NCBI RefSeq assembly: GCF_048403405.1 | Contig: NZ_CP183129.1 | Direction: 5' to 3' (one strand) | Origin: Escherichia coli | Lineage (GTDB): Bacteria > Pseudomonadota > Gammaproteobacteria > Enterobacterales > Enterobacteriaceae | DNA length: 64,000 nucleotides | Part shown: piece by piece, positions 4,924-64,000 of the stretch | Layout: each line of letters starts with the position of its first letter | How positions within the stretch are numbered: the stretch's first letter is position 1 | The notes under the pieces: generated by a model | Database searches by the model: none | What the model was told of the DNA's origin: nothing | Seen by the model: the letters and a program-made list of their open reading frames with translations, nothing else | Position numbers and translations under genes: made by a program

Positions 4924-6204
4924 ATGAAGAAAATAAGTTTAACCACGATGATTCTTTTGGCGCTGGTACTTGGAATGATTATCGGCGTAGTGCTCAATAA
5001 CACTGCTTCACCGGAAACCGAAAAACTCTATGCGCAAGAAATATCGATATTCACGACGATTTTCTTACGACTGATAAAAATGATTATCGCTCCGTTAGTG
5101 GTCTCTACCCTGGTGGTAGGTATAGCTAAAATGGGCGATGCCAAAGCCCTTGGTCGTATTTTTTCTAAAACACTCTTTTTATTTATTTGCGCCTCATTGC
5201 TGTCAATTGCCTTAGGCTTGATAACAGTAAATTTCTTCATGCCAGGCACAGGAATTAATTTTGTTGCACACGGAGCCGAAACCACCGGAGTGGTCGCGTC
5301 AGAACCCTTTACGCTAAAAGTATTTATTTCGCATGCTTTCCCCACCAGCATTGTCGATGCCATGGCGCACAATGAAATTTTGCAAATCGTGGTGTTCTCA
5401 ATTTTCCTCGGCTGTAGCCTGACGGCGATTGGCGAGAAAGGCAGCGCCATCGTTCACGCCTTAGATTCGCTGGCACATGCCATGTTAAAGCTCACTGGCT
5501 ACGTCATGCTCTTCGCTCCCCTGACCGTATTCGCTGCTATTTCAGCATTGATTGCTGAACGAGGACTGGCAGTTATGGTGAGCGCCGGGATCTTTATGGG
5601 TGAATTTTATTTCACCATGTTATTACTTTGGGTGCTGCTTATCGGTCTGGCCATCGTTTATGTTGGCCCCTGCATCAGACGCCTGACCCGCGCCCTTTCG
5701 GAACCCGCCCTGCTGGCATTTACCACATCCAGTTCTGAAGCGGCTTTTCCGGGAACGCTTGAAAAACTGGAGCAATTTGGCGTTTCCCCCAAAATTGCCA
5801 GCTTTGTCTTACCCATTGGCTACTCATTTAATCTTGTTGGATCAATGGCCTACTGCTCCTTCGCCACAGTTTTCATCGCCCAGGCCTGCAATATCCATTT
5901 ATCCATCGGTGAGCAAATCACCATGCTGTTGATCCTGATGTTGACCTCGAAAGGAATGGCTGGCGTACCACGCGCCTCAATGGTGGTTATCGCCGCCACG
6001 CTCAACCAGTTCAATATTCCGGAAGCGGGGCTGATCTTGCTGATGGGCGTTGATCCGTTCCTTGATATGGGGCGTTCCGCGACAAACGTCATGAGCAACG
6101 CAATGGGCGCTGCGATGGTGAGTCGGTGGGAAGGCGAACATTTCGGCGAGGGTTGTCGGGGTAAAGCATTAAAACCCAATGAATCGAACGTTGCTCTGCC
6201 CTGA
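4924..6204 (+). CDS. sodium:dicarboxylate symporter family transporter (glutamate/aspartate or C4/C5-dicarboxylate:cation symporter-like)
   Basis: About 426 aa, highly hydrophobic multi-helix protein; GGAGG 5 nt upstream of the ATG at 4924 (longest ORF begins at 4903). Confidence 0.75.
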   Translation: MKKISLTTMILLALVLGMIIGVVLNNTASPETEKLYAQEISIFTTIFLRLIKMIIAPLVVSTLVVGIAKMGDAKALGRIFSKTLFLFICASLLSIALGLITVNFFMPGTGINFVAHGAETTGVVASEPFTLKVFISHAFPTSIVDAMAHNEILQIVVFSIFLGCSLTAIGEKGSAIVHALDSLAHAMLKLTGYVMLFAPLTVFAAISALIAERGLAVMVSAGIFMGEFYFTMLLLWVLLIGLAIVYVGPCIRRLTRALSEPALLAFTTSSSEAAFPGTLEKLEQFGVSPKIASFVLPIGYSFNLVGSMAYCSFATVFIAQACNIHLSIGEQITMLLILMLTSKGMAGVPRASMVVIAATLNQFNIPEAGLILLMGVDPFLDMGRSATNVMSNAMGAAMVSRWEGEHFGEGCRGKALKPNESNVALP

Positions 6205-8609: not shown

Positions 8610-9515
8610 TTACATCTCCTGCGGTACGACCGATTTCGCCAGCAACCATTCACGAAATTGCTGCAAGTGCGGCGAGTCAGACTTCTCTTCCTGCCACGTC
8701 ATAATAAAACGATTACCGGTACGAATAGGCACATCACAGGGAATCACCATATCGCCACTATCCAAATCATGTTGAATAGCGAACCGTGGTAACAGCGCCA
8801 CGCCGAGATTAGAGCGCACGGCGGCAATCAGCATTGAAAGCAAATCGAAACGTGGTCCGTTATTGACCAGCGGACTGCTAACGCCAGATAAAGCAAACCA
8901 CTCTTCCCAGCCAGTAATACGGGTGCTTTGATGCAGAAGTGGTAACTCAGTAAGCAGTTCTGCCACTGACAGTTTTTGATCGGACATTGCAAGCAAACTG
9001 CCGCTGCATACCGGCAAAATCTCCTCATCAAAGAGATATTCTACTTCCGCCCAGGGCGCGCAAAAATTTTCGCGCATAATGACAGCATCGTACTCCCGAT
9101 TAAGAAAATCGCCGTTATTAGCTAAAGAATGAATATTAACAATAATATCGGGATGTAACTTTGTGAATTCATGTAAATTTGGGATTAACCAGTGGGTACT
9201 AAAAGTAGGATTAACGGCAAGTTCAATAACCTGAACCGTAGGCTGCCAGGTCATAATGGTATTGGTATCGCGTTCCAGCTTATTTAATGTTTCTTTTACT
9301 ATCCCCAGGTAATACTTCCCTGCATCATTAAGAAAAATACGTTTTTTAGAGTGTGAAAATAACGGAGTATGTAAAAATTCCTCCAGCGCACTCACTTGTC
9401 TGAATACAGCACTTTGGGTTAACGCTAACTCCTCTGCCGCTCTGGTATAACTTTCATGACGTGCGACGACCTCAAAAGTCACCAGCAGCTCCGTTTTAGG
9501 TATTTTTCCTCGCAT
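8610..9515 (-). CDS. LysR-family transcriptional regulator
   Basis: 301 aa; N-terminal helix-turn-helix (LVTFEVVARHESYTRAAEELALTQSAVFRQVSALE) plus a substrate-binding-domain-sized C-terminus. Confidence 0.85.
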   Translation of the reverse strand: MRGKIPKTELLVTFEVVARHESYTRAAEELALTQSAVFRQVSALEEFLHTPLFSHSKKRIFLNDAGKYYLGIVKETLNKLERDTNTIMTWQPTVQVIELAVNPTFSTHWLIPNLHEFTKLHPDIIVNIHSLANNGDFLNREYDAVIMRENFCAPWAEVEYLFDEEILPVCSGSLLAMSDQKLSVAELLTELPLLHQSTRITGWEEWFALSGVSSPLVNNGPRFDLLSMLIAAVRSNLGVALLPRFAIQHDLDSGDMVIPCDVPIRTGNRFIMTWQEEKSDSPHLQQFREWLLAKSVVPQEM

Positions 9516-36057: not shown

Positions 36058-36906
36058 TTAATCCTGTTGTAGCAGGACAAGATTACGAAAGCGCGCTCCC
36101 CGCAAGGACTGACGCCAGATAGTTTCTGTCCATGGCTGCCCTTTCCATTCAAACGTGAAATCAATAAGTTCATCAGGGACACCGCAAACAATATGAAGAC
36201 GGATTTCTTCTCTGCCGTGACTCTTTTCACTCATTGCGAAACTGTCATGCTCTGGATTATTTAATTCTTTCAGTGGGAATTTTTCCTCAAAGGCTTTATT
36301 AAGCCGTCCCTGATTTCCTTTTACAGCGAATAAATAATCACCGCCCTGTTTTTGTATCTTCTCTGCGATATCTTTCTGGCAACCCATCGCATCAGTTGTG
36401 ATAATTTTTCCTTTAATATCCAACATGTTAAGAAGTTCAGGGATAGCTGTGATCTCATTGGATTTCTCATCCGTCCTGATCTGTCCGATGACCAGACTGT
36501 GCATTGTTGAGAACGCACTAATGACATGAATCGCTCCCCTGCGGCGACTCTTGTCATAAGAATGCCGGAGCGTTTTTCCATCAATTGCAATAACGTCTTT
36601 ATCATCTGAAGAATGGCAGTCACGCATCCAGTTAATAAAGCACTCGTGAAATTTTGCAGGACTGATACAGGATACAACTCTGGCAATGGTATCGTGAACA
36701 GGAATACCATTTTCAAAATCACCATATTGCTTCAAAAAATCGAGATGTGTTTCCCCAAAATCCTCTATATCTTCCCAGCCTTCTGCACCAGAAATAACGG
36801 CACAAATAGTCAACAGTAGAATATCCGACAATTTATGTTCCACTTTCCAGGCTTGTCTGTAATCGGGGATAATAGAAATATGTTCCATCAATTTTTTAAG
36901 TTCCAT
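36058..36906 (-). mobile_element. ybfD: H-repeat-associated (ISAs1-family) transposase gene, 3'-truncated remnant
   Basis: 282 aa ORF with N-terminus [51 protein letters not shown] typical of H-rpt proteins; homology ends after ...FTFEWKG, then an unrelated short tail (full-length proteins are about 378 aa as recalled). Confidence 0.8.
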
Positions 36907-37013
36907 TTTGTTCTCCTTAATTATGTAAAGAGTATTTGATCATGTATACGCAATAAAAAACAGCTTCAGGTAATGAGGAATATCTCAATTTTTAAACATA
37001 AAATGCGAATTAC

Positions 37014-37593
37014 TTAGTACAAAAAGTGTACTTCTGATGATCTTTCCCTGTCCTTGGCACCATCATTTTTTGACGCTTCAAAAATACTACTACAAGTGAG
37101 TTTAGAAAACTCTTTTCCAGATAATTCTCCAGGTTGTAATCCTCCGCCGCCAAAAATCCTACTCCCAGGATTTCCATACCTATTTAGAGCATATGAATAG
37201 CAATTATTTACGGCAAGATAATACGCATCTGAATTTAGTTCTCGATTGAATACTGGAGCAGGTTTATCAATTAAGCCCAGCGGATCAATAGAATAGGTTG
37301 GATGTATGGAAGCATATACATACTGATTCCACCCGCCTTCCAGCCCAATCGGTTCCTGAGTGATATACCGCCCCTGCAGCGGGTCATAATAGCGGTGGCG
37401 GTTGTAATACAGGCCGGACTCCTCATCATACTGCTGCCCCGGCAGACGGATAAGCTGCTGCAGGTGCTGCGGGTTCTCTTCAGTCAGCAGGTTGCCCCAT
37501 TCATCATATTCTGCGCACCATTCTGTTGCCCCGTCAGGGCTGATAAGCGTCAGCGGCAGGCCGCGATAGTCGCAGTGGTAGAGGTGGATTATT
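37014..37593 (-). pseudogene. orphan rhs core-end plus alternative C-terminal toxin (CT) fragment, no start codon
   Basis: Minus-strand translation gives ...[12 protein letters not shown]...[46 protein letters not shown] then a unique tail ending ...SSEVHFLY, stop at 37014-37016; 37340-37600 is a near-identical DNA repeat of 38690-38950 inside the main rhs gene. Confidence 0.75.
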
Positions 37594-37623
37594 CGCAGTG
37601 GTAGAGGTGGATTATTCGCAGTG
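37571..37623. repeat. 23-bp tandem direct repeat (2 copies plus a partial third) at the 5' edge of the orphan rhs fragment
   Basis: CGCAGTGGTAGAGGTGGATTATT at 37571-37593 and 37594-37616, then CGCAGTG. Confidence 0.9.
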
Positions 37624-37706
37624 ATCTATATGCCAACGTCATCTTATTTTTCATCTACTCCAACGAGTAGACAAGTTTTTTATTAAACCATTTATACCTT
37701 TTACGA

Positions 37707-38210
37707 TTAAATTTTCTTATGTAATAGAGGTGAATAATCTTCCCAAAAATCCATACAAGCTTTACTTGCATAAAAGAATCCAGCGTCTGATTCATAAGAC
37801 ATAAACTGTGCAATAATAGATAGTTGTATATCTGAAAAATTAAAAACAAAATTCAAAAAATCATCGTGATCCCGATACTCAGGACATAAATATTGTTGAA
37901 TAAAATCGGATTCAAAAACCCAAAAATCATTCTTATTAAACAACGAGGCATAAATATACAGAGGGATGTAATAGCAGAATACTTTCTCAGGGAGGAATGT
38001 AATTCCTAACTCTAAAGCATAAGAGTCATCCTTTATTTTAAAATTGTTGGCTATTTCATTCCATTGTTTCTTTTGGAAAAAATTATATACAATATCCAGT
38101 TCCTCCAGCCCTGTAATATCATTTGAAATATGAGGTAATGGCTGGCATGGGAAATGAATCATAAGTTCATCATAGACTGCACTCTCGTTAGAGAAAATTA
38201 TTTTTTTCAT
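37707..38210 (-). CDS. candidate Rhs immunity protein (RhsI-like), cognate to the main Rhs toxin tip
   Basis: 167 aa from [16 protein letters not shown]; its ATG overlaps the rhs stop (ATGA at 38207-38210); low-GC, no signal peptide; position directly 3' of the toxin gene. Confidence 0.6.
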
Positions 38211-41200
38211 TTTATTAAGCCACTGCAATCAGCTGCTGTTTTATATGCTTTATTCTCTTCTTCCATATGGGCCTTATCTCCACCACCAAAGCACTGATTA
38301 TTAATCTGCTTTCTGACCGAAGCGCACGCCAAATTTATCTCGTACCGTCTCAATATTTCTTTTCTCAGCATCTGAGGAGCGCAAGCTCTAGACTGGTTAC
38401 ATAATCTGTTTTTTTCATTTTGTAAGTCACTCAGGTTCTGGGGACTACAGTTACCACCAGGATTTACACCTGACTTATGTTCATCTGTTAATTTGTCGGC
38501 TTCTGGATTAACTTTACGGCCATATTGATCTCTGCGTTGTTGCCCACTTTGGATAACACCACCTGATGAAAATAAACCGCAACTCATCAGTGCTACAACA
38601 CTAAGAATTAACGGATTTAACCCTTGTGGGTCTATCTCTGAGATCGGATTTAACGGATACTGATAAAAATTCCATCCCCCCTTAAGCCCAATCGGATCCT
38701 GAGTGATATACCGCCCCTGCAGCGGGTCATAATAGCGGTGGCGGTTGTAATACAGGCCGGACTCCTCATCATACTGCTGACCCGGCAGGCGGATGAGCTG
38801 CTGCAGCTGATGCGGGTTCTCTTCATTCAGCAGGTTGCCCCATTCATCGTATTCTGCGTACCACGCTGTTGTCCCTTCCGTGCTGACAAGCGCCAGCGGC
38901 AGGCCGCGATGGTCGCAGTGGTACAGGTGGATTTTTCGCGCCGGCGTGTACACCGGGTCCATCTGGTTTTGCATCTGCTCCACCGTCAGGCCGCACGATG
39001 CCAGCCAGCGGCGGCTTTCCTCGCTCACCCGGTCAGTAAGGATTTCACTTTCCAGCCGGTCGAGCATCTGCACCAGCACCGGCGGGAACACCACTCTGCC
39101 ACCGTCTTCGCCGCCGGACTGCTGAAGGGCATCCGCCAGGCTGCGGCGCTGCGTTTTCGCCAGCTCACCGGTGGCGGTTTCAACTCTGATGAGTGGCGTG
39201 AAGCTCCCCGGCTGATAAACCGTCTGGATGCGGGTTCTGTCGTTCTGTATTGTGGTCAGCCGGTCGCCGTCCCAGCCGTACCAGGTCACTTCCGGTTTCC
39301 GTGACAGCGACATCCAGCCCGTCAGGTCCCGTTCACGCCGCCATACCCGTTTTGCCACCCTGCGGCCCAGCGGGTCGTAAAGATAGCGACTTTCGACCAG
39401 CGGCTCTGCATATTGTGTCCGCGTGTAGTGCACCAGCCGGTGCCGGCTGTCGTAATGATACCGGTGAGTCCGCTCATCATCCGTGCGGATAACCCCTTCC
39501 GGGATGAGGTCGGTTTTCTCTGTCAGCCTGCCGTGACGGTCATACCGGTAAAGATAGTGCGCGTCACGGGCGATACGGTTATCCGGCCACATGCTGAGGG
39601 TGCTGTCCGGGTGCAGCTCCGGGTCGGGCAGGCGGTTGCCTGCCGGGTCCGTGGCATACGGGATGCGGATATCCAGATTCGCTGCGGTGGTGTGGACGCC
39701 GGTCAGCCTGCCGGTGTCGCTGTAGCTGTAACTCCGGGTCTGGCGCGGGCTGCTGATGCGGATGAGTTCGCCGTTGTCGTTCCAGGTGTAATCGCGGTCA
39801 TACTGCAGGCTGTTCAGGTGCTGGCTCTGTAACTGCCCGGCAGAGGTGTAAGCGGTGGTGAGTTCATAACGGCCGAAGCTGCGCAGCGTTTCCCGGTGCA
39901 GGCGGTCGCGGGTGAAATCCACCAGCGGTGTGTCGCCGAGTTTCATGCCTGACAGCCAGCCGCTGCCGTAGGTCAGCCATTCCACGGCGGGCAGGCTGTC
40001 CGGTATACAGCGGTTCGCCAGTCCCTGCGCGTTGTACGCATGTCTGGTTTCATGCTGCCAGAGCAGTGCTTCCGTCTGCGGGTGATGCACCGTCTGGCGC
40101 TCACCGGTCAGGCGGCCTTTCTCATCATACCCGTAATGCACCGTCACCCGGTGGCCTTCGCTGAGATGGCTGATGCCTGTCAGCCAGCCGCGTTCGTCAT
40201 ACTGCCACTGCTCTGCAGGTTCACCCTTCACGGTGCGGTGAGTGAGGCGGTCTGCTTCGTCATAGTGCCAGTGGGTGACCAGCCCCTCATCCTCGCTGCG
40301 GATAAGTTTACCGGTCAGGTCGTGGTGATAACGCTGTGTGCGGCCGTCAAAGCCGGTTTCCTGTATCAGCCGGTCAAGTACATCGTAACGGAAGGTGGTG
40401 TGGCTGCCGTTTTCACTGGTCAGGCGGATGACCCGCCCGGCAGCATCGTATTCCATACTGCGCGTCAGACCGCCCTGCGTGGTACGAACGGGCTTTCCCC
40501 ACGCATCGTACTGTGTCCCGTTTCTGCTGCCGTCCGGGGCAATGACGGCGGTCAGGTCACCGGCGGCGTTGTATTCATACCGCGTTTCATGGCCCTGCGT
40601 GTCTTTCACCGCAATTAACTGTCCACGGCTGTCGTATGCGCGGTACTGACTCAGCCCTTCCTCGCGGTGCACCGCCGTCACCTGACCAAAACGGTCATGG
40701 TCATAACGGGTTACATAACCGGAACAGTCAGTGACGGTCAGCAACTGACCGTAACGGCTCCATGTCATGGTTTTCCGGCTGCCGGTGGCATCTTCCGTTG
40801 CGCAGGGTAAGTCACTGTGTGGATTATCATAACGGTAGCGGGTGATATCGCCGTTGTGTGCGGTTTCCTGAATCAGACGGCCGGATTCATCATATTTGCG
40901 GCGCAACTCCAGCCCGTCAGTCCCGGTGGCTGACGTTAACTGGTTGTGGTGGTTATAGTAAAATGCCGATGCCCTGCCATCCGGTGTGGTGATGCGCGTG
41001 ATGAGTCCCGTCACCACATCCGGGCTGTACTCAGTCGTCCGGCCTGCGGCATCCGTCTGTGCCTTAAGCCCGCCCACCGCGTCAAACTGACTCTGCGTGA
41101 CGCTGCCGTCCGCGTGTTCCTTTTTCACCACCCGCTTCAGCCCGCCTTCGCCCTGCGTGTGCAGCACTTCACGGCGGTCCAGACTGTCGGTGATGGTGAT

Positions 41201-42358
41201 GCGGTCTTTCTCATACTGATACGTGTAGCTTAAGCCTGCCGGGTTTAGCTGTTCTGTCACCCGCCCGTCGCTGTCGTAACGGTAACGGATATCCGGCCGG
41301 CCCGTGTGACGGTGCGCCACCATCCGGCCCCGGTATTTATCATCGTAAGTAAAGCTGCGCACCTGTGTATTGCTGCGGTCATACACCGCCGCCAGTTCGC
41401 CGCGTGGCGTCCAGCCATAGCGCACCAGCGGCGCGGCAGGTAAATTCTCCGGGTATTCCGGGTCGTGCGTCAGCCACACGGCAGACAGACGGATGCCGTT
41501 GTCCCGGCCATATTCGGTGTAACCCGGCAGGGTATCAGGAAAAACGGACGGTTCCGTCCCGCCGGAAATGGCCTGCTGCCGGGCTTCTTCTGCCCGCTGC
41601 GCCTGCGTGGTCAGTACCAGCCGGAAGTGACGCCCGGCACCATCCGTCACGCCGGTGATTTCGCCGCTGAATTCGCCGCCAGCCTCACGGTGAAACGTCT
41701 GTGTGCGCCCGAAGCGGTCCACCAGCCCGGTCAGTACCCGGTACGGCGGCAGCGGCGCGGGCAGCACCTCATCCGCCTCCGGCACCCGCTCACACCAGCC
41801 GAGTACCCACCACGGCCCCTGCGGACTGTTTGTCGCCAGATAACGATGCGGACTCAGGCGAAGCTCTTCCGGCAGCGCCTGCCAGAGTGCGGCCAGCCGG
41901 TGACCTTCATCCAGTTTCGCCACGCCGCCGCGCACCAGCCAGAGTGACTCGCTGCGGCTGTAACCGTCCTCACCGGGAAACAGGTGCTCAAAATACAGGC
42001 TTCTGCCGCCGTTATCACTGAGTGTCAGTGTGTTATCGCGCAGCTGTAAGCGGATATCCGCAGGCATTTTCCAGCCGGGGCCGAGGCTCCCCACCGGCGC
42101 GGGCGTTTTTGTCCGGTAACTGCTGTAGGTGCGGGAGAGGATGAACGGCAGCGGGCCGGGCAGGGCAAGGTCGGTTTCGCCGGGAAGGACCTTCGCACCG
42201 AGCAGCGGATTGACCGGATGGCCGGACGTCACCCCGCCGGGGCACACCGAACAGGCCACGCCGGTGGGGGCACCAATACGTACCCCGGCTGAACCCTGAA
42301 CAATGCTACCGCCATACTGCGTCATGTCGCCCTGACGCGCCGCCGGTTTTCCGCTCAT
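38207..42358 (-). CDS. rhsC: Rhs-family polymorphic toxin (YD-repeat protein with variable C-terminal toxin domain)
   Basis: 1383 aa; N-terminus [34 protein letters not shown]; many YD repeats; conserved core end ...[17 protein letters not shown]...DPQGL followed by a unique Cys-rich tail; symbol from synteny with ybfA-kdp. Confidence 0.85.
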
Positions 42359-42545
42359 CTGCTCATCCTTGTTTTATCGGGTTATTTGTCTGCTGACAGG
42401 CGAAACCCTACAGATTTATAAGAAAGCCTTAAGTGAGATATCTGTCAGATAAGAACAATTAGGAAAATATTTATATATATTTCATGAATATATGTTTCGA
42501 TTGGTATAACGGTGTCTAAATATTCCTCTGAACATCTTCCTGATA

Positions 42546-47536: not shown

Positions 47537-50213
47537 CGAACCCTTACGTCCCGACCCCGATCGTCTGCTGGAACAAACTGCCGCGCCGCATCGGGGGAAG
47601 CTGAAAGTTTTCTTCGGTGCCTGCGCAGGCGTCGGGAAGACCTGGGCGATGCTGGCAGAAGCCCAGCGACTGCGGGCGCAAGGGCTGGATATTGTGGTTG
47701 GCGTGGTAGAAACCCACGGGCGGAAAGATACCGCCGCAATGCTGGAAGGGCTGGCTGTTCTGCCGTTAAAACGCCAGGCGTACCGTGGGCGGCACATCAG
47801 CGAGTTTGATCTCGATGCCGCCCTCGCCCGCCGTCCGGCACTGATCTTAATGGACGAACTGGCGCACAGTAATGCGCCAGGTTCTCGTCATCCCAAACGC
47901 TGGCAGGATATTGAAGAGTTGCTGGAAGCTGGCATTGATGTTTTCACTACCGTCAACGTTCAACATCTGGAAAGTCTGAATGATGTGGTCAGCGGCGTCA
48001 CCGGAATTCAGGTACGAGAAACCGTGCCCGATCCTTTTTTCGATGCCGCCGACGACGTGGTGCTGGTGGACTTGCCCCCGGACGATCTGCGCCAGCGGCT
48101 GAAAGAAGGCAAAGTCTATATTGCCGGGCAGGCGGAGCGCGCCATTGAACATTTTTTCCGCAAAGGCAATCTGATCGCCCTGCGCGAACTGGCACTGCGC
48201 CGTACTGCCGATCGCGTAGATGAGCAAATGCGCGCCTGGCGGGGGCATCCTGGCGAAGAGAAAGTCTGGCACACGCGCGACGCGATCCTTTTATGCATCG
48301 GGCATAACACCGGCAGCGAAAAACTGGTCCGCGCGGCGGCGCGGCTGGCGTCACGGCTGGGAAGCGTCTGGCACGCGGTGTATGTTGAAACCCCTGCCCT
48401 GCACCGCTTACCGGAGAAAAAACGTCGGGCAATTCTCAGCGCCTTACGTCTGGCGCAGGAGCTGGGCGCGGAGACGGCAACACTTTCTGATCCAGCGGAA
48501 GAGAAAGCGGTAGTGCGTTATGCCCGTGAACATAATCTCGGCAAGATTATTCTCGGTCGCCCGGCCTCGCGCCGCTGGTGGCGTCGGGAAACGTTTGCTG
48601 ACCGACTGGCGCGAATCGCCCCCGATCTCGATCAGGTGCTGGTCGCGCTTGATGAACCACCCGCCCGCACGATAAACAACGCGCCGGATAGCCGCTCTTT
48701 TAAAGACAAGTGGCGGGTACAGATTCAGGGATGCGTGGTTGCCGCCGCGTTATGCGCCGTTATCACCTTAATTGCCATGCAGTGGCTGATGGCGTTTGAT
48801 GCCGCCAACCTGGTGATGCTGTATCTGCTTGGCGTGGTGGTGGTGGCGCTATTTTATGGACGCTGGCCTTCGGTGGTTGCCACCGTTATTAATGTGGTGA
48901 GTTTCGATCTCTTTTTTATCGCCCCACGCGGCACGCTCGCCGTCTCTGATGTGCAATATCTGCTGACCTTCGCGGTGATGTTAACCGTCGGGCTGGTGAT
49001 CGGGAACCTTACTGCGGGTGTGCGTTATCAGGCGCGGGTAGCCCGTTACCGCGAGCAACGCACACGGCACTTATATGAAATGTCGAAAGCTCTGGCTGTG
49101 GGCCGCAGTCCGCAGGACATCGCCGCCACCAGCGAACAATTTATTGCCTCCACGTTTCATGCCCGCAGTCAGGTGTTGTTGCCCGATGACAACGGTAAAT
49201 TGCAGCCGTTAACACATCCGCAAGGAATGACGCCGTGGGACGATGCCATCGCGCAGTGGAGTTTTGATAAAGGCCTGCCTGCGGGCGCGGGCACCGACAC
49301 GTTACCCGGTGTACCGTACCAGATTCTGCCGTTAAAAAGCGGCGAGAAAACCTACGGACTGGTGGTGGTAGAACCGGGGAATCTGCGTCAGTTGATGATC
49401 CCGGAACAGCAGCGCCTGCTGGAGACATTTACGCTGTTAGTCGCCAATGCGCTTGAGCGGCTGACGCTGACCGCCAGCGAAGAACAGGCGCGGATGGCAA
49501 GCGAACGAGAACAGATCCGCAACGCCCTGCTGGCGGCGCTTTCGCATGATTTACGCACGCCGCTTACGGTGCTGTTCGGTCAGGCAGAAATCTTAACGCT
49601 CGATCTGGCAAGCGAAGGATCGCCTCACGCCCGCCAGGCCAGCGAGATTCGCCAGCATGTGCTGAACACGACCCGACTGGTGAATAATCTACTGGATATG
49701 GCGCGAATTCAGTCCGGCGGCTTTAATTTGAAGAAAGAGTGGTTAACGCTGGAAGAAGTGGTCGGCAGCGCGCTGCAAATGCTGGAACCGGGTTTATCGT
49801 CGCCCATCAATCTTTCTCTGCCAGAACCGCTGACCTTAATCCACGTTGACGGGCCGCTCTTTGAACGGGTGCTGATTAATCTGCTGGAGAACGCGGTGAA
49901 ATACGCGGGGGCGCAGGCCGAAATTGGTATCGATGCCCACGTTGAGGGCGAGAAGCTACAACTGGATGTCTGGGATAACGGCCCCGGTCTTCCGCCAGGC
50001 CAGGAGCAGACGATATTTGATAAGTTTGCTCGCGGGAATAAAGAGTCGGCGGTACCGGGTGTCGGGCTTGGGCTGGCAATTTGTCGGGCGATTGTGGATG
50101 TACACGGCGGCACCATTACCGCGTTCAACCGACCGGAAGGTGGTGCCTGTTTTCGTGTTACACTTCCCCAGCAAACTGCCCCTGAACTTGAAGAATTTCA
50201 TGAGGATATGTGA
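47529..50213 (+). CDS. kdpD: sensor histidine kinase KdpD
   Basis: 894 aa from [14 protein letters not shown]; His-kinase [11 protein letters not shown] motif; overlaps kdpC by 8 nt. Confidence 0.95.
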
Positions 50214-50887
50214 CAAACGTTCTGATTGTTGAAGATGAACAGGCTATTCGTCGCTTTCTGCGCACGGCGCTGGAGGGCGACGGTATGCGCGTCTTTGAGG
50301 CCGAAACGCTGCAACGCGGCTTGCTGGAAGCGGCAACCCGTAAGCCAGATTTGATTATTCTCGATCTCGGCCTGCCCGATGGTGATGGGATTGAGTTTAT
50401 CCGCGACCTGCGCCAGTGGAGCGCGGTGCCGGTGATTGTGCTTTCCGCACGTAGCGAAGAGAGCGATAAAATCGCCGCGCTGGATGCCGGAGCGGATGAT
50501 TACCTGAGTAAGCCATTTGGTATTGGCGAATTGCAGGCCCGTCTGCGCGTCGCTTTACGCCGCCACTCCGCCACCACCGCGCCCGATCCGCTGGTGAAAT
50601 TTTCCGATGTTACCGTCGATTTAGCGGCTCGTGTGATCCATCGCGGTGACGAAGAGGTGCATCTCACCCCGATTGAGTTCCGCCTGCTGGCGGTGCTACT
50701 TAACAATGCCGGAAAAGTACTCACCCAGCGCCAGTTACTCAATCAGGTGTGGGGACCAAACGCGGTCGAACACAGTCATTATTTGCGTATTTATATGGGG
50801 CATCTGCGACAAAAACTGGAACAGGATCCCGCCCGGCCTCGCCATTTCATTACTGAAACCGGTATTGGGTATCGGTTTATGCTTTAG
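50210..50887 (+). CDS. kdpE: response regulator KdpE (OmpR family)
   Basis: 225 aa; GTG start overlapping the kdpD stop (GTGA). Confidence 0.95.
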   Translation: MTNVLIVEDEQAIRRFLRTALEGDGMRVFEAETLQRGLLEAATRKPDLIILDLGLPDGDGIEFIRDLRQWSAVPVIVLSARSEESDKIAALDAGADDYLSKPFGIGELQARLRVALRRHSATTAPDPLVKFSDVTVDLAARVIHRGDEEVHLTPIEFRLLAVLLNNAGKVLTQRQLLNQVWGPNAVEHSHYLRIYMGHLRQKLEQDPARPRHFITETGIGYRFML

Positions 50888-50899
50888 GCGGTTAAATGC

Positions 50900-50990
50900 T
50901 GGATCCGGCATGAACGCCTTATCCGGCCTACAAAATAGCGCAAATTCAATATATTGCACCATCCTCGCAGGCCTGATAAGCGTAGCGCAT
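50900..50990. repeat. REP-type palindromic elements in the kdpE-pgm spacer
   Basis: GCCTTATCCGGCCTAC and AGGCCTGATAAGCGTAGCGCATCAGGC motifs. Confidence 0.6.
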
Positions 50991-51005
50991 CAGGCAGTCA
51001 TAAGT

Positions 51006-51036
51006 AAAAAAGGGCGATCTTCCGACCGCCCTTTTT
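51006..51036. terminator. bidirectional intrinsic terminator between kdpE and pgm
   Basis: AAAAAAGGGCG...CGCCCTTTTT. Confidence 0.65.
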
Positions 51037-51050
51037 CTTATTTAATGTGT

Positions 51051-52691
51051 TTACGCGTTTTTCAGAACTTCGCTAACAATCTCGACCGCTTCTTTCTCGA
51101 TCTGCTTGCGATGCTCTTCACCGAGGAAGCTTTCGCAATAAATCTTGTACGCGTCTTCCGTGCCTGACGGACGCGCGGCGAACCAGCCGTTGTCAGTCAT
51201 CACTTTCAGACCGCCAATAGAAGCACCATTGCCCGGTGCCGCAGTCAGGCGCGCAGTGATCGGGTCACCTGCCAGGGTGCTGGCGCTCACCATTTCCGGA
51301 GACAGCTTAGACAACGCCGCTTTTTGTGCGGAAGTCGCAGCTGCCTGCAAACGGTTGTAGCTCGGCGCACCAAAGCGTTTTGCCAGTTCGTTGTAGTGTT
51401 CCTGCGGGTTCTTACCGGTGACAGCGGTGATTTCCGCCGCCAGCAGACACATAATGATGCCGTCTTTGTCGGTGGACCACGGCGTGCCGTCGAAACGCAG
51501 GAAGGAAGCCCCTGCGCTCTCTTCGCCGCCAAAGCCGAAGCTGCCATCGAACAGACCATCAACAAACCATTTGAAACCTACCGGGACTTCTACCAGCTTA
51601 CGGCCCAAGTCATTGACCACACGGTCGATCATCGCAGATGAAACCAGCGTTTTACCGACAGCAACATCTTTGCCCCACTGCGGACGATGCTGGAACAGGT
51701 AGTTGATCGCCACCGCCAGGTAGTGGTTCGGATTCATCAAACCTGCCGGAGTGACGATACCGTGACGGTCATAATCCGGGTCGTTAGCAAACGCCAGATC
51801 GAACTTATCACGCAGTGCCAGCAGGCCCGCCATCGCACACTCGGAGGAGCAGTCCATACGGATCGCACCGTCTTTATCGAGGTGCATAAAGCGGAAGGTT
51901 TGATCGACCTGATCGTTAACGATGGTCAGGTTGAGGTTGTAATACTCGCCAATGCGCTTCCAGTATTCGATACCGGAACCACCCAGCGGATCAACGCCCA
52001 GCGTCAGGCCCGCTTTCTGAATCGCCGCCATATCAACGATATCGGCCAGCCCTTCCACAAACGGCTGCACCAGATCCTGCTCTTTCACATGACCGGATGC
52101 CATCGCTTCGTCGAGGGAGATACGCTTCACGCCTTTCAGGCCATCGGCCATCAGTGCGTTGGCCCTGTCTTCCACCACTTTGGTGACGTTAGTATCAGCC
52201 GGGCCACCATTTGGCGGATTGTACTTGATACCACCATCTTCCGGCGGGTTATGGGACGGTGTAATCACGATACCGTCTGCCAGAGGGCCACCTTTTTTAT
52301 TGTGAACCAGAATGGCATTGGAAATGGCAGGTGTCGGAGTGAAGCCATTGTTTTCCTGCACAATGACATCAACGCCGTTCGCTGCCAGCACTTCCAGTAC
52401 GGAAATGAACGCAGGCTCGGACAGGGCGTGAGTATCTTTACCCACATAGCAAGGGCCAGTGATGCCGTTTTTCGCACGTTCTTCAGCAATTGCCTGAGCG
52501 ATCGCCAGAATGTGCGGCTCGTTAAAGCTGTGGCGCGCTGCACTGCCACGGTGACCGGAAGTACCGAATTTCACCGCGTGCTCCGCATTCCCTGCTTCTG
52601 GTTTCAGTACATAATATTGCGCCGTCAGTTGGGCGACGTTAATCAAATCACTCTGTTGTGCAGGTTGGCCTGCACGATTGTGGATTGCCAT
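51051..52691 (-). CDS. pgm: phosphoglucomutase
   Basis: 546 aa from [19 protein letters not shown]; active-site TASHNP-like region ([12 protein letters not shown]). Confidence 0.95.
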
Positions 52692-60246: not shown

Positions 60247-61008
60247 TTAATCGGCTATGATTAAACGCGTCGATAAGGACGCAAGCGTTCTACGCGTCTG
60301 CCCATCAAGCTGATTATCCGTAATAATCTCTGTCAGTTCATTAAGATGCGCGATATTAAACAGCGACCATGAACCGTATTTTGAGCTGTCAGCCAGGAGA
60401 ATTTTGCGCGAAGCATGCGCGATAAGATCGCGTTTTAGTGCGGCTTTCTCTTCCGTGGGTGCTGTAATACCCTTTTCAAGATCCCAGCTGTTACAGCTTA
60501 AAAATGCCACGTCCGGCCAGGTATTTTGCAGCAATTTACGACCATGTTCGCCAATGCAGGACTGGCTGGAGTCGTCGATACGTCCACCGATAATCGTCAC
60601 TTCAATCTGCTTGAATTCAGCCAAAAAAAGCGCGATATGCAGGTCGCTGGTGATCACGCGAAGCGGTAAATGTGTAATCTGCCGCGCAAGTTCAATCATT
60701 GTCGTACCGGCATCAAGGACGACGGAATCCCCCGCTTTGACCATTGACGCCGCTGCGCTGGCGATGGCATGTTTTTCCGCCAGGCTGCGCTGCATTTTCT
60801 CATGGGTAGTCGGTTGGGTAGGAATAAACCGGTTGAGGGTCACACCGCCGTGTGTACGGCTGATAACACCCTGCTCATCGAGTTTTATCAGGTCTCGACG
60901 AATCGTGGCCGGCGACGCATTGGTTACCGCCACCAGCTCATCAACGGTGACCAGATTATGGCTTTTCAGGTAATCCATGATCTGCTCTAACCGGTTATAT
61001 CCCTTCAT
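60247..61008 (-). CDS. DeoR-family transcriptional regulator
   Basis: 253 aa; N-terminal HTH plus C-terminal sugar-phosphate-binding domain. Confidence 0.85.
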
Positions 61009-61009
61009 T

Positions 61010-61996
61010 TTATTCTCGCGAAATCTGCATTGCTAACTGGATGGAAACTGCCATGCTCTCAGACTTGGCTTTTCCTGTCCAGGCAATATCAAACGCGGTG
61101 CCGTGGTCGGCAGAAGTGCGAATAAATGGCAACCCGGCGGTGATATTCACCCCATCATAAAATCCAAGCAGTTTTAAAGGGATATGCCCCTGATCGTGGT
61201 ACATAGCCACTACCATATCGAATAGCCCTTCATGGCATTGCATAAACACGGTATCTGGCGGGCACGGGCCAGTAACATCAATATCTTCGGCCTGCATTGC
61301 TTCAATCGCAGGCGCGATAATCTCGATTTCTTCAGTGCCGAATAAACCGTGTTCCCCTGCATGTGGATTTACACCCGCCACGGCAATACGCGGACGCTCA
61401 ATACCAACACGTTTCAGGAAGTGGTTCGCAACTCGAATAACCGTTTTGACCCTTTCACCATTCAAAGTATCCAGGAATTTACGCAGTGAGATATGCGTCG
61501 AAATATGGATAACCTTGAGCTTATCGGTATAGAGCACCATCGCGTACTCTTTGCTGCCGGTAAGATGGGCCAGCAATTCCGTATGCCCCGGATAGTTATG
61601 CCCGCCAAGATGCAACGCTTCTTTATTCAGCGGCGCAGTGGCTATGGCTTTCACCTCGCCTGATAAGGCCAGGGCCGTTGCACGTTTGATACAGCGATAC
61701 GCTAAATCGCCTGCCGCAGCCTGTACCACTCCGGGTGTCAGCGCATCGGGGTTAGCCAGCGGCTCATCCATCACGTTAATCACGCCGGGAGCAAAATGGG
61801 CGTCGCACACCTTTTCAATGACGCGTAACTCTGCCTTCGGCGTGATATTCATCGCCATAATACGTCTCAGCGTGCGCACACAGCCCACCACCACCACCGG
61901 GGCACCAGCAAGCCCGGCTTCGCTCAGGGATTTAATAATGATCTCCGGGCCAATACCCGCCGGGTCGCCCATCGTTACCGCAATAATATTATTCAC
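61010..61996 (-). CDS. PdxA-family NAD-dependent dehydrogenase (PdxA2-like; 4-hydroxythreonine-4-phosphate dehydrogenase family)
   Basis: 328 aa with [19 protein letters not shown] and [12 protein letters not shown] motifs typical of PdxA. Confidence 0.85.
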
Positions 61997-63224
61997 TACG
62001 CTTCTCCTCGATAAAATTCAGAACCTGATGCAACGTGGTCTCATCGCCAAACCCACCGGCTTTCGTCATCACCGAACGGGACCAGACGCCGCCCAGAAAG
62101 TGACCGTATGGAACGCATTGCGCCACCTTCGCCGTAATACGAAATCCGGTCGCGCCTAACGCACTGGCTGTTGCCATTGCGACATCACCACCAGAGAGAT
62201 AAAGCGCATCGGGCATTGCGCGAAGCAGAACTTGCCGGGTAAGTTCGCCAAGAAACCGGCAAATTTTTTCCCCAAGCGCAGCGCGACTCATCTGCCAACG
62301 CTGGCAAAGGGTGTCGATCTGGTGCCTTGCTACAGAATCGTTACAGGTGTGGACAATGCAGTGGTCGCCTTTCTGCAAGGCCTGCACAATACGCGCGTCA
62401 TAGTCACTGGCATTGCCTGCCAGAATGTGTTCAACATCGACGTATATCTGTGTGATACGTGGGTGTGAATGAAGTGTGGCGATCTGCCGTTGAGCGATTT
62501 CGCTCATTGAACCAATAATGGCCAGCACGGTGGGTGGCGGCATAATCGTGGAGCGCCGGGCAACGGCATCACAAATACCAGCGGAGCCGACCAGCAGCAG
62601 CGGTTGTTTAGCCTGCATCACAGCGGCAGCGATGCGATCCAGGTCGCTGTCCGTCTGCGCATCTATCACGCCAATCCACGGTTGCTCATAAGACAAATGG
62701 CTGAGCTGAGAAACCGTAACGGGCTGGCATGGAATGGCCGTCTGCAACCGGATGATGTCCGCAATTCGGGCGCTCAATACCGGGGTTTTCGGATCGCTGG
62801 CAAACTCGGTTTCCGTTATCCGCACACCGTTTACCCAACACTCACCGGCCACTGTGGTCCTTCCCGCCTGAGGAAATGCGGGGGCAACCACTGCGCCCGT
62901 TATACCGCATGCCTTCATCAGGGCTTCAATTTCTGCGCCAATATTGCCTCGCAGCGTGGAATCTATCTTTTTAATCACGAGCGGAGGGTTATTCGCCAGA
63001 GGGAGATGACTCATCAGCGAGGTTATTTTCATCGCCGCCAGCTTAGGATCCATCGCCCGGCTGTCGCTGTTAATCACCCATACGCTGGCATCACCGCGAT
63101 AAGGCATTTCAAAGGCCACATCAACTGTATGCCCCACCTGCGCCAGGCTTACCCCCGCGTCATTGGCTCCCGTGAAATCATCGGCAACGACGAGAATGCT
63201 CGGCTTAGTGATTCCCTTTTCCAT
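61989..63224 (-). CDS. DUF1537-family four-carbon acid-sugar kinase (OtnK/DtnK-like)
   Basis: About 411 aa from MEKGITKPSILVVADDFTGANDAGV (GGAG 5 nt upstream; the longest ORF extends to 63266); stop overlaps the PdxA-like start. Confidence 0.8.
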   Translation of the reverse strand: MEKGITKPSILVVADDFTGANDAGVSLAQVGHTVDVAFEMPYRGDASVWVINSDSRAMDPKLAAMKITSLMSHLPLANNPPLVIKKIDSTLRGNIGAEIEALMKACGITGAVVAPAFPQAGRTTVAGECWVNGVRITETEFASDPKTPVLSARIADIIRLQTAIPCQPVTVSQLSHLSYEQPWIGVIDAQTDSDLDRIAAAVMQAKQPLLLVGSAGICDAVARRSTIMPPPTVLAIIGSMSEIAQRQIATLHSHPRITQIYVDVEHILAGNASDYDARIVQALQKGDHCIVHTCNDSVARHQIDTLCQRWQMSRAALGEKICRFLGELTRQVLLRAMPDALYLSGGDVAMATASALGATGFRITAKVAQCVPYGHFLGGVWSRSVMTKAGGFGDETTLHQVLNFIEEKRSE

Positions 63225-63393: not shown

Positions 63394-64000
63394 GTGGTAA
63401 TTATCAATAGCACGATACTGAGCGGCGCAGGCGCTATCCCTTCCCTGACGTCGCTCTTACCCGACATCAGAAAAATGCTGCTGGTCACTGACCGTAATAT
63501 TGCGCAGCTCGACGGTGTGCAGCAGATTCGCGCCTTACTGGAAAAGCACTGCCCGCAGGTTAACGTTATCGATAATGTGCCCGCAGAGCCCACGCATCAT
63601 GATGTGCGCCAGCTAATGGACGCCCCTGGCGATGCCTCTTTTGATGTGGTGGTCGGGATCGGCGGTGGCAGCGTGTTGGATGTGGCGAAGCTGCTATCGG
63701 TGCTTTGCCATCCACAATCACCAGGGCTGGATGCGCTGCTTGCGGGTGAAAAACCGACTCAGAGGGTGCAATCATGGTTGATTCCTACAACCGCCGGAAC
63801 CGGCTCAGAAGCCACGCCGAATGCGATTCTGGCAATCCCTGAGCAAAGCACGAAGGTGGGTATTATTTCCCCGGTGCTGTTACCAGACTATGTGGCGCTT
63901 TTCCCGGAACTGACCACCAGCATGCCCGCGCATATTGCGGCGTCCACGGGCATTGATGCTCTTTGCCACTTACTGGAGTGTTTTACCGCGACCGTGGCAA
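63394..64000 (+). CDS. iron-containing (group III) alcohol dehydrogenase family protein, 3'-truncated by the window end
   Basis: GTG start preceded by GAGAGG; translation VVIINSTILSGAGAIPSL...MLLVTDRNI...FDVVVGIGGGSVLDVAKLL... with GGGS motif; absent from the ORF track because no stop codon lies inside the window. Confidence 0.7.
   Translation, partial: MVIINSTILSGAGAIPSLTSLLPDIRKMLLVTDRNIAQLDGVQQIRALLEKHCPQVNVIDNVPAEPTHHDVRQLMDAPGDASFDVVVGIGGGSVLDVAKLLSVLCHPQSPGLDALLAGEKPTQRVQSWLIPTTAGTGSEATPNAILAIPEQSTKVGIISPVLLPDYVALFPELTTSMPAHIAASTGIDALCHLLECFTATVA

Follow-up and report, generated by a model that had tools for sequence, protein, structure and literature searches.

The kdpE-pgm junction lacking speF-potE as one structural allele of a variable Escherichia coli locus

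The genes kdpE and pgm of Escherichia coli K-12 enclose the speF-potE operon, which encodes an acid-inducible ornithine decarboxylase and a putrescine-ornithine antiporter, and several further genes, whereas in the 64-kb stretch of E. coli DNA analysed here (the window) the two genes are separated by only a short spacer. This raises the question of whether the operon was lost from this genome or never inserted at this site, both of which the original prediction had allowed, and whether the REP elements in the spacer are scars of the recombination involved. The reading favored here, with a probability of about 0.65, is that the window carries a "null" structural allele of a multi-allelic kdpE-pgm locus, and that this allele is an old loss that moves between lineages by homologous recombination.

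The spacer and its flanking genes

From the gene coordinates, the gap of about 160 bp that had been predicted between kdpE and pgm measures 163 bp. It contains one BIME-1-like REP pair and one bidirectional terminator and nothing more; the REP-like palindromes and single terminator described earlier were both recovered by hairpin folding and inverted-repeat search. The features of the region are as follows.

50210-50887, + strand: kdpE, response regulator of 225 aa, last gene of kdpFABCDE (from the ORF list)
50888-51050, no strand: convergent intergenic spacer of 163 bp, from the kdpE stop to the pgm stop
50898-50932, + strand: REP 1, GCTGGATCCGGCATGAACGCCTTATCCGGCCTACA, with a hairpin fold at 50898-50927
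50933-50966, + strand: linker between the REPs, ~33 bp, of the BIME-1/RIP-type "L" kind
~50967-50996, - strand: REP 2, inverted relative to REP 1, GCAGGCCTGATAAGCGTAGCGCATCAGGC (inverted repeat I2, hairpin at 50971-50995)
51007-51036, no strand: predicted bidirectional intrinsic terminator for kdpE and pgm, AAAAAGGGCGATC-TTCC-GACCGCCCTTTTT, arranged as A-tract, GC-stem and T-tract
51051-52691, - strand: pgm, phosphoglucomutase of 546 aa, with its reverse-strand stop codon starting at 51051

Both flanking genes are intact, and the kdpE of the window is identical to the annotated kdpE WP_000186073.1 (locus L001). Its stop codon is TAG (50885-50887), whereas kdpE alleles followed by speFL or ybfG end in TGA, as seen in a stop-codon comparison. 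The spacer stands in place of a 4.2-kb segment in the common allele or a 5.9-kb segment in the K-12 allele, consisting of speFL-speF-potE with or without a kdpE' fragment, ybfG and ybfP, and the speF-potE-ybfP block reported as missing is indeed absent. In addition, tblastn found no homologue of SpeF, PotE, YbfP or YbfG encoded anywhere in the 64-kb window.

The two REP palindromes lie in inverted orientation, as in BIME-1/RIP elements. The likeness extends to a multi-copy presence in every genome, and may extend to the linker with its IHF-like core. E. coli genomes contain a median of 15 matches to REP-containing queries (39 with a two-BIME query), identifying a dispersed extragenic family, of which this member sits between convergent 3' ends. 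It differs in the atypical 5' half of REP 1, which reads GCTGGATCC in place of GCCGGATGC. The linker carries AAATTCAATATATTGCA at 50942-50958, in a single copy in the window, and is kept in all aligned BIME-bearing (non-S) alleles. When compared by eye, its core ATTCAATATATTG (50944-50956) has one mismatch to the IHF consensus WATCAANNNNTTR, and the core is read as a putative IHF-like site accordingly. An Rfam scan of the spacer returned no family above threshold, merely sub-threshold REP/BIME-related and spurious matches, including ES036/CssrF at 50932-50974 (33.5 bits against a gathering threshold of 37.6) and naRNA4; no sRNA is claimed.

At 50888-50911 lie the 10 nucleotides that follow the stop codon of kdpE, together with the 5' half of REP 1 (GCTGGATCCGGCAT, a near-palindrome with a BamHI site). 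This stretch is unusually diverged from the other alleles, with ~8 positions differing from those of close relatives, and its variant bases are partly like those of the allele in the divergent strain SCPM-O-B-8794. Gene conversion from another REP is one possibility for its source.

The terminator has arms of 13 nucleotides that are 92% complementary (inverted repeat I1). It folds with -17.1 kcal/mol on the + strand (the kdpE side) and -22.0 kcal/mol on the - strand (the pgm side), with z-scores of -4.8 and -6.5, respectively, and no shuffled sequence folds as well. With a GC-rich hairpin, an upstream A-tract and a downstream T-tract, it has the form predicted for an intrinsic bidirectional terminator, and a single A:C mismatch in its stem kept a simple terminator scanner from flagging it. 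In operon-bearing alleles the same hairpin lies between potE and pgm, identical in P31_YH1 (L006) and S103EC (L007).

Structural alleles in E. coli and other Enterobacterales

A count of the alternatives to the bare junction, covering 5,426 complete genomes of E. coli, gave the following results.

Full-length speF-potE present: 5,038 genomes (92.8%)
"S" allele, potE-terminator-pgm, 56 bp between stop codons, without ybfP or ybfG: 3,197 genomes (58.9%)
K-12-type junction potE/kdpE fragment/ybfG: 1,819 genomes (33.5%)
kdpE and pgm within 1.5 kb: 360 genomes (6.6%)
kdpE and pgm within ~0.6 kb: 335 genomes (6.2%)
kdpE-BIME-ybfP-pgm: 248 genomes (4.6%)
kdpE-ybfG(intact)-ybfP-pgm, no operon: 3 genomes (<0.1%)

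The bare kdpE-pgm form is estimated at ~87 genomes (1.6%) by subtracting the 248 ybfP-bearing genomes from the 335 with close spacing, and 56 of the best 60 junction matches are single-piece junctions. Conserved flanks with alternative contents in conspecifics, here five counted structural alleles, are what an accessory-operon presence/absence polymorphism consists of. The window is an ordinary case of such a polymorphism, with speF-potE lacking in ~7% of complete E. coli genomes. Nearly all operon copies (5,016/5,038) lie at one of the two canonical junctions, leaving at most ~22 elsewhere; genomes with adjacent kdpE and pgm are therefore almost always without the operon entirely. On this ground, we infer that speF-potE is probably missing from the entire source genome of the window, beyond the 64 kb at hand.

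The junction of the window is not private to it. Its 251-bp sequence is 100% identical in six complete RefSeq genomes (TUM14771, GN02461, 4621, MS 69-1, TUM1226 and OX030728), which are 99.9-100% identical to the window over 24 kb, and the three of these that were opened are annotated with kdpE followed by pgm and no gene between them. The comparison of the junction with these genomes, such as MS 69-1, GN02461 and TUM14771, reveals no difference at all. Single-piece bare junctions at 93-98% identity occur in other lineages, comprising ~20 porcine O139:H1/ETEC isolates, ~27 O145:H28 STEC isolates, and dog, chicken and human isolates. Among these, O145:H28 (RM13514/RM13516) and porcine O139:H1 share with the window the kdpD-kdpE/pgm-seqA order and a spacer of ~160 bp, and differ in junction haplotypes that are 95.6% and 97.2% identical to that of the window, respectively. 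The arrangement is already present and annotated in public genomes. A literature search found no paper on a presence/absence polymorphism of speF-potE at the kdpE-pgm locus.

The common S allele, found in ST131 EC958, Nissle 1917 and strain 148 (of unstated serotype), and also in E. albertii, has the same flanking genes as the window, and in E. coli S alleles the terminator adjoining pgm matches as well. It differs in its 4.2-kb operon, in the TGA stop of kdpE followed by AT-rich speFL leader DNA, and in having no BIME.

The arrangement in K-12 is more complex. In MG1655, the stop codons of kdpE and pgm are 5,857 bp apart, and the interval is annotated with speFL, speF, potE, a partial winged-HTH pseudogene, a DUF2625 pseudogene and a lipoprotein gene, with HB101 alike. 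The gene order given in the original prediction, with speF-potE and ybfP between kdpE and pgm, is therefore right, and the case that would have overturned it, a K-12 kdpE directly adjacent to pgm, does not hold. In K-12 nomenclature, ybfI is a 3' fragment of kdpE, ybfG is the DUF2625 pseudogene with an internal stop and ybfP is the lipoprotein gene; ybfG and ybfP are both specific to E. coli. Past potE, the order is a second terminator, ~40 bp that resemble the sequence upstream of ybfP and include half a REP, the kdpE 3' end, ybfG, ybfP, BIME, terminator and pgm. The kdpE 3' copy is 142 bp long and ~10% diverged from K-12's own kdpE; it lies between potE and ybfG, at 9001-9144 in HB101 (L002) and 6001-6144 in MG1655 (L093), and is lacking from the window. 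K-12 and the window thus have in common the BIME and terminator adjoining pgm, and differ by the operon, second terminator, kdpE remnant, ybfG and ybfP.

The three speF-less kdpE-ybfG-ybfP-pgm genomes (GF4-3, CUWW10 and KL53) help to explain this arrangement. In all three, the sequence that follows the K-12 fragment is directly preceded by a full kdpE, and the fragment is for this reason read as the leftover end of a kdpE gene; ybfG is annotated as intact in GF4-3 and CUWW10, the two that were opened. Most simply, the K-12 composite would have arisen when a kdpE-speF-potE segment recombined into a speF-less kdpE-ybfG-ybfP allele, with the resident kdpE end surviving as a pseudogene. A literature search found no paper on the origin of this arrangement (ybfI/ybfG/ybfP). 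Three more specific proposals found no support. Tracing the K-12 fragment to a particular kdpE allele is uninformative, given 85-91% identity over 144 bp. Derivation of the CUWW10 allele from K-12 by a simple kdpE x kdpE' deletion is unsupported, because all 14 diagnostic sites are of the kdpE type and the downstream flank is 1.4% diverged. E57, considered as donor of the second terminator of K-12, carries the ordinary terminator.

K-12 is a poor yardstick for the locus, as ~34% of genomes share its composite and ~59% have speF-potE without ybfP. With most E. coli lacking ybfP and ybfG and ~7% lacking speF-potE, it is an unreliable template for what to expect here.

Beyond E. coli, a KdpE scan yielded 80 species-representative Enterobacterales loci, classified by tblastn, in a set that does not include E. 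fergusonii, E. marmotae, E. ruysiae, Shigella or Salmonella. The speF gene directly follows kdpE in 29/80 loci, 25 of which continue with potE and then pgm. They include E. albertii, Citrobacter, Enterobacter, Kluyvera, Lelliottia, Leclercia, Atlantibacter, Cedecea, Trabulsiella and Phytobacter massiliensis. In 41/80 loci, kdpE and pgm lie within 2 kb without speF. This set includes all loci of Pantoea, Serratia, Dickeya and Pectobacterium that extend as far as pgm, together with several Citrobacter, Enterobacter asburiae, Phytobacter diazotrophicus, Klebsiella indica, Buttiauxella, Mangrovibacter and Franconibacter. Within Escherichia, it contains E. whittamii (L010) and SCPM-O-B-8794 (L009), a divergent species representative labelled "E. 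coli"; the flanks of the latter are ~95-97% identical to the window. Among the 80 loci, the operon is patchy at the kdpE-pgm site, absent outside Enterobacteriaceae and variable within genera. This distribution implies that a kdpE directly facing pgm represents the older synteny within the order, and that speF-potE is an insertion in part of the Enterobacteriaceae. In Pseudocitrobacter faecalis (L028, 2981-5476), speF follows kdpE with no match to potE, and pgm lies ~2.5 kb past kdpE; this looks like partial operon loss in another genus.

Origin of the null allele

The architecture of the window's allele is shared across species boundaries. E. whittamii and SCPM-O-B-8794 match it in having a TAG stop, ~10 nucleotides, a REP, the same linker, an inverted REP and the same terminator. 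The terminator stem-loop, GGGCGATCTTCCGACCGCCC, is identical in the S alleles of P31_YH1 and S103EC and in the null alleles of the window, E. whittamii and SCPM-O-B-8794, while the S allele of E. albertii has a different one, GGGCGATCGAATGATCGCCC. That E. coli S and null alleles have the same terminator, unlike that of E. albertii, ties both allele classes together by a change within the coli/whittamii clade. Taken with the S allele in E. albertii and sister genera, it favors an old loss on grounds of parsimony. Furthermore, the BIME and terminator adjoining pgm are common to all non-S alleles (null, ybfP, ybfG-ybfP and K-12-type). The window, strain 2824 and the ybfP allele have in common an 11-bp deletion that is not found in E. 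whittamii, SCPM-O-B-8794, the ybfG-ybfP allele or the K-12-type alleles.

Of the two possibilities in the original prediction, loss therefore mostly stands, though as an old structural allele circulating in Escherichia and not as an event in this genome. The bare form occurs in E. whittamii, SCPM-O-B-8794 and several unrelated lineages of E. coli, and exactly this site holds speF-potE in most E. coli, in E. albertii and in many Citrobacter and Enterobacter.

The suggestion that the REPs are recombination scars fares differently for the two parts of the block. The kdpE-speF and potE-pgm intervals contain no REP motif in six operon-bearing loci, which include three E. coli S alleles, the K-12-type allele and E. 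albertii. As no REP flanks the operon, REP-REP recombination cannot have excised speF-potE from any allele seen. Similarly, no integrase, transposase or tRNA gene was found beside speF-potE in the annotated alleles, and excision as an island is not indicated. For ybfP, on the other hand, the suggestion is borne out: in the kdpE-ybfP-pgm allele the gene is bracketed by two direct 35-bp REPs differing at 2 positions, and in strain 2824 the REP of the bare allele consists exactly of the left REP joined to the flank of the right one, which is the predicted crossover product. In SCU-105 (L003 ~1640 compared with L004 1640-1730), the 3' end of ybfP has been lost in an 86-bp deletion between two 10-bp direct repeats, CAGCGTCGCA, of which the first is part of the adjacent REP and the second lies within ybfP.

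The junction of the window is of a different kind from that of strain 2824. Compared with the ybfP allele of GMF054, its nearest ybfP-bearing relative, it differs at ~8/35 positions after the stop codon, although the two kdpE genes are nearly identical, with 4 mismatches over their final 200 bp and 0-1 in each 200 bp further upstream. Such divergence beside a near-identical kdpE means that the allele is not a simple REP x REP product, and the junction is treated here as a putative mosaic. Strain 2824 (null) and strain 148 (S) differ by 0-2 mismatches per 100 bp in the part of kdpE and its upstream flank that lies 100-700 bp before the stop codon, and again by 0-2 per 100 bp along the initial 1.1 kb of pgm, compared with 13 mismatches in the final 100 bp of kdpE. 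Judged from these alignments, the pattern is the probable footprint of a patch of a few hundred bp that replaced 4.4 kb. In the window, pgm is 99.3% identical to that of the S-allele strain P31_YH1, and kdpE merely 94-96%. The last ~150 bp of kdpE (50740-50887 in the window) are the most diverse part of the locus among E. coli alleles, at 88-100% pairwise identity and mostly 88-95%, compared with 94-99% for the rest of kdpE, kdpD and pgm. This diversity fits repeated recombination end-points beside a structural polymorphism.

The oldest step was probably a loss; a less likely alternative is a retained ancestral null state, with speF-potE moving laterally into the site. Under retention, the adjacency would be unbroken since the Enterobacterales ancestor, and speF-potE would have entered other Escherichia by lateral transfer and homologous recombination at the site. 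The adjacency seen wherever a sampled Erwiniaceae, Yersiniaceae or Pectobacteriaceae locus extends to pgm agrees with this, as do its recurrence inside Citrobacter, Enterobacter, Phytobacter and Escherichia, the null architecture common to E. whittamii and SCPM-O-B-8794, and the K-12 composite, which indicates that speF-potE can recombine into a speF-less allele. Retention is nevertheless unlikely given that this very position carries speF-potE in E. albertii, ~93% of E. coli and many sister genera, and that SpeF identity (95% for E. albertii, 91-93% for Citrobacter) tracks that of the flanking genes. The terminator shared by null and operon alleles in E. coli points to derivation within the coli/whittamii clade, and the null spacer of Escherichia contains a BIME, whereas those of Citrobacter or Pantoea are short and have a terminator only.

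More local explanations fit the data far less well. REPs at the junction, and direct REPs around ybfP in a related allele, speak for a recent, strain-specific REP x REP deletion of a K-12-like speF-potE-ybfG-ybfP block. Such a deletion is highly improbable in view of the operon's lack of flanking REPs in the six loci scanned (K-12-type and E. albertii included), the recurrence of the junction at 100% in six genomes and at 93-98% in many unrelated lineages and two Escherichia species representatives, and the kdpD/kdpE flanks of the window, which at 94-97% identity are not K-12-like. That the block was removed by an assembly or collapse artefact has in its favor nothing but the repeats (REPs) at the junction, and is refuted by the identical junction in six independently assembled complete genomes and related annotated junctions in dozens more.

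The favored history, an old loss spread by recombination, would run as follows. The adjacency of kdpE and pgm would be the ancestral synteny of Enterobacterales, into which speF-potE was inserted in an ancestor within the Enterobacteriaceae, so that Escherichia inherited the operon. An old deletion would then have removed everything between the stop codon of kdpE and a point just ahead of the terminator, with a BIME filling the gap and founding the BIME-bearing allele family. Within E. coli, this family may have gained ybfG-ybfP, and the K-12 composite would have formed when kdpE-speF-potE recombined back in, leaving the 142-bp kdpE 3' pseudogene. The ybfP gene could be removed again through its two flanking direct 35-bp REPs, and null alleles would pass between lineages as short homologous-recombination patches. 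A bolder and rather doubtful extension holds that the polymorphism at the kdpE/pgm site is long-lived in Escherichia and possibly trans-species, with both states kept by niche-dependent selection and the deletion allele passed between phylogroups as patches of a few hundred bp. If true, it would explain the diverse last ~150 bp of kdpE, and the K-12 composite as a re-acquisition.

Functional context and neighboring variation

SpeF is the acid-inducible ornithine decarboxylase of E. coli, and SpeC is the constitutive one (PMC9748477). Strains with the null allele would be expected to lack inducible SpeF/PotE activity and to obtain putrescine from constitutive pathways. This may have a bearing on ornithine-decarboxylase phenotyping, putrescine export and mild-acid physiology. 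Loss of an inducible amino-acid decarboxylase is known in Escherichia/Shigella from the cadBA "black hole" deletions. The present case is similar in that an acid-inducible decarboxylase/antiporter pair is naturally lost in some lineages. It differs in that no pathoadaptive benefit is indicated for carriers without speF-potE, which are ecologically mixed and comprise human commensal and blood isolates as well as porcine, bovine STEC and chicken isolates. The significance of the locus beyond bookkeeping is small; it offers a small example of a deletion allele spreading by homologous recombination, of single-gene excision between REPs, and of the likely origin of the kdpE-fragment pseudogene in K-12.

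Further variation is seen nearby. Adjoining glnS, the window carries a D-threonate utilisation cluster (~60247-63224, - strand) with a DeoR regulator, a D-threonate 4-phosphate dehydrogenase and the kinase gene dtnK, followed by an iron-containing alcohol dehydrogenase gene (~63394-64000). The cluster is also present in S103EC, while in K-12/HB101 nagE directly follows glnS; it is another accessory insertion in the window. Upstream of ybfA-kdpF lies an RHS element (~36100-42400, - strand). Its core protein gene measures 4.15 kb and has a small ORF downstream; the element further includes an orphan C-terminal fragment of an RHS gene and ybfD, a truncated ISAs1 transposase. Lastly, IS200C is found between glnS and nagE in P31_YH1 (L006, 19258-19716), and between potE and pgm in TL012 and OZ547164 (matches H12 and H248).
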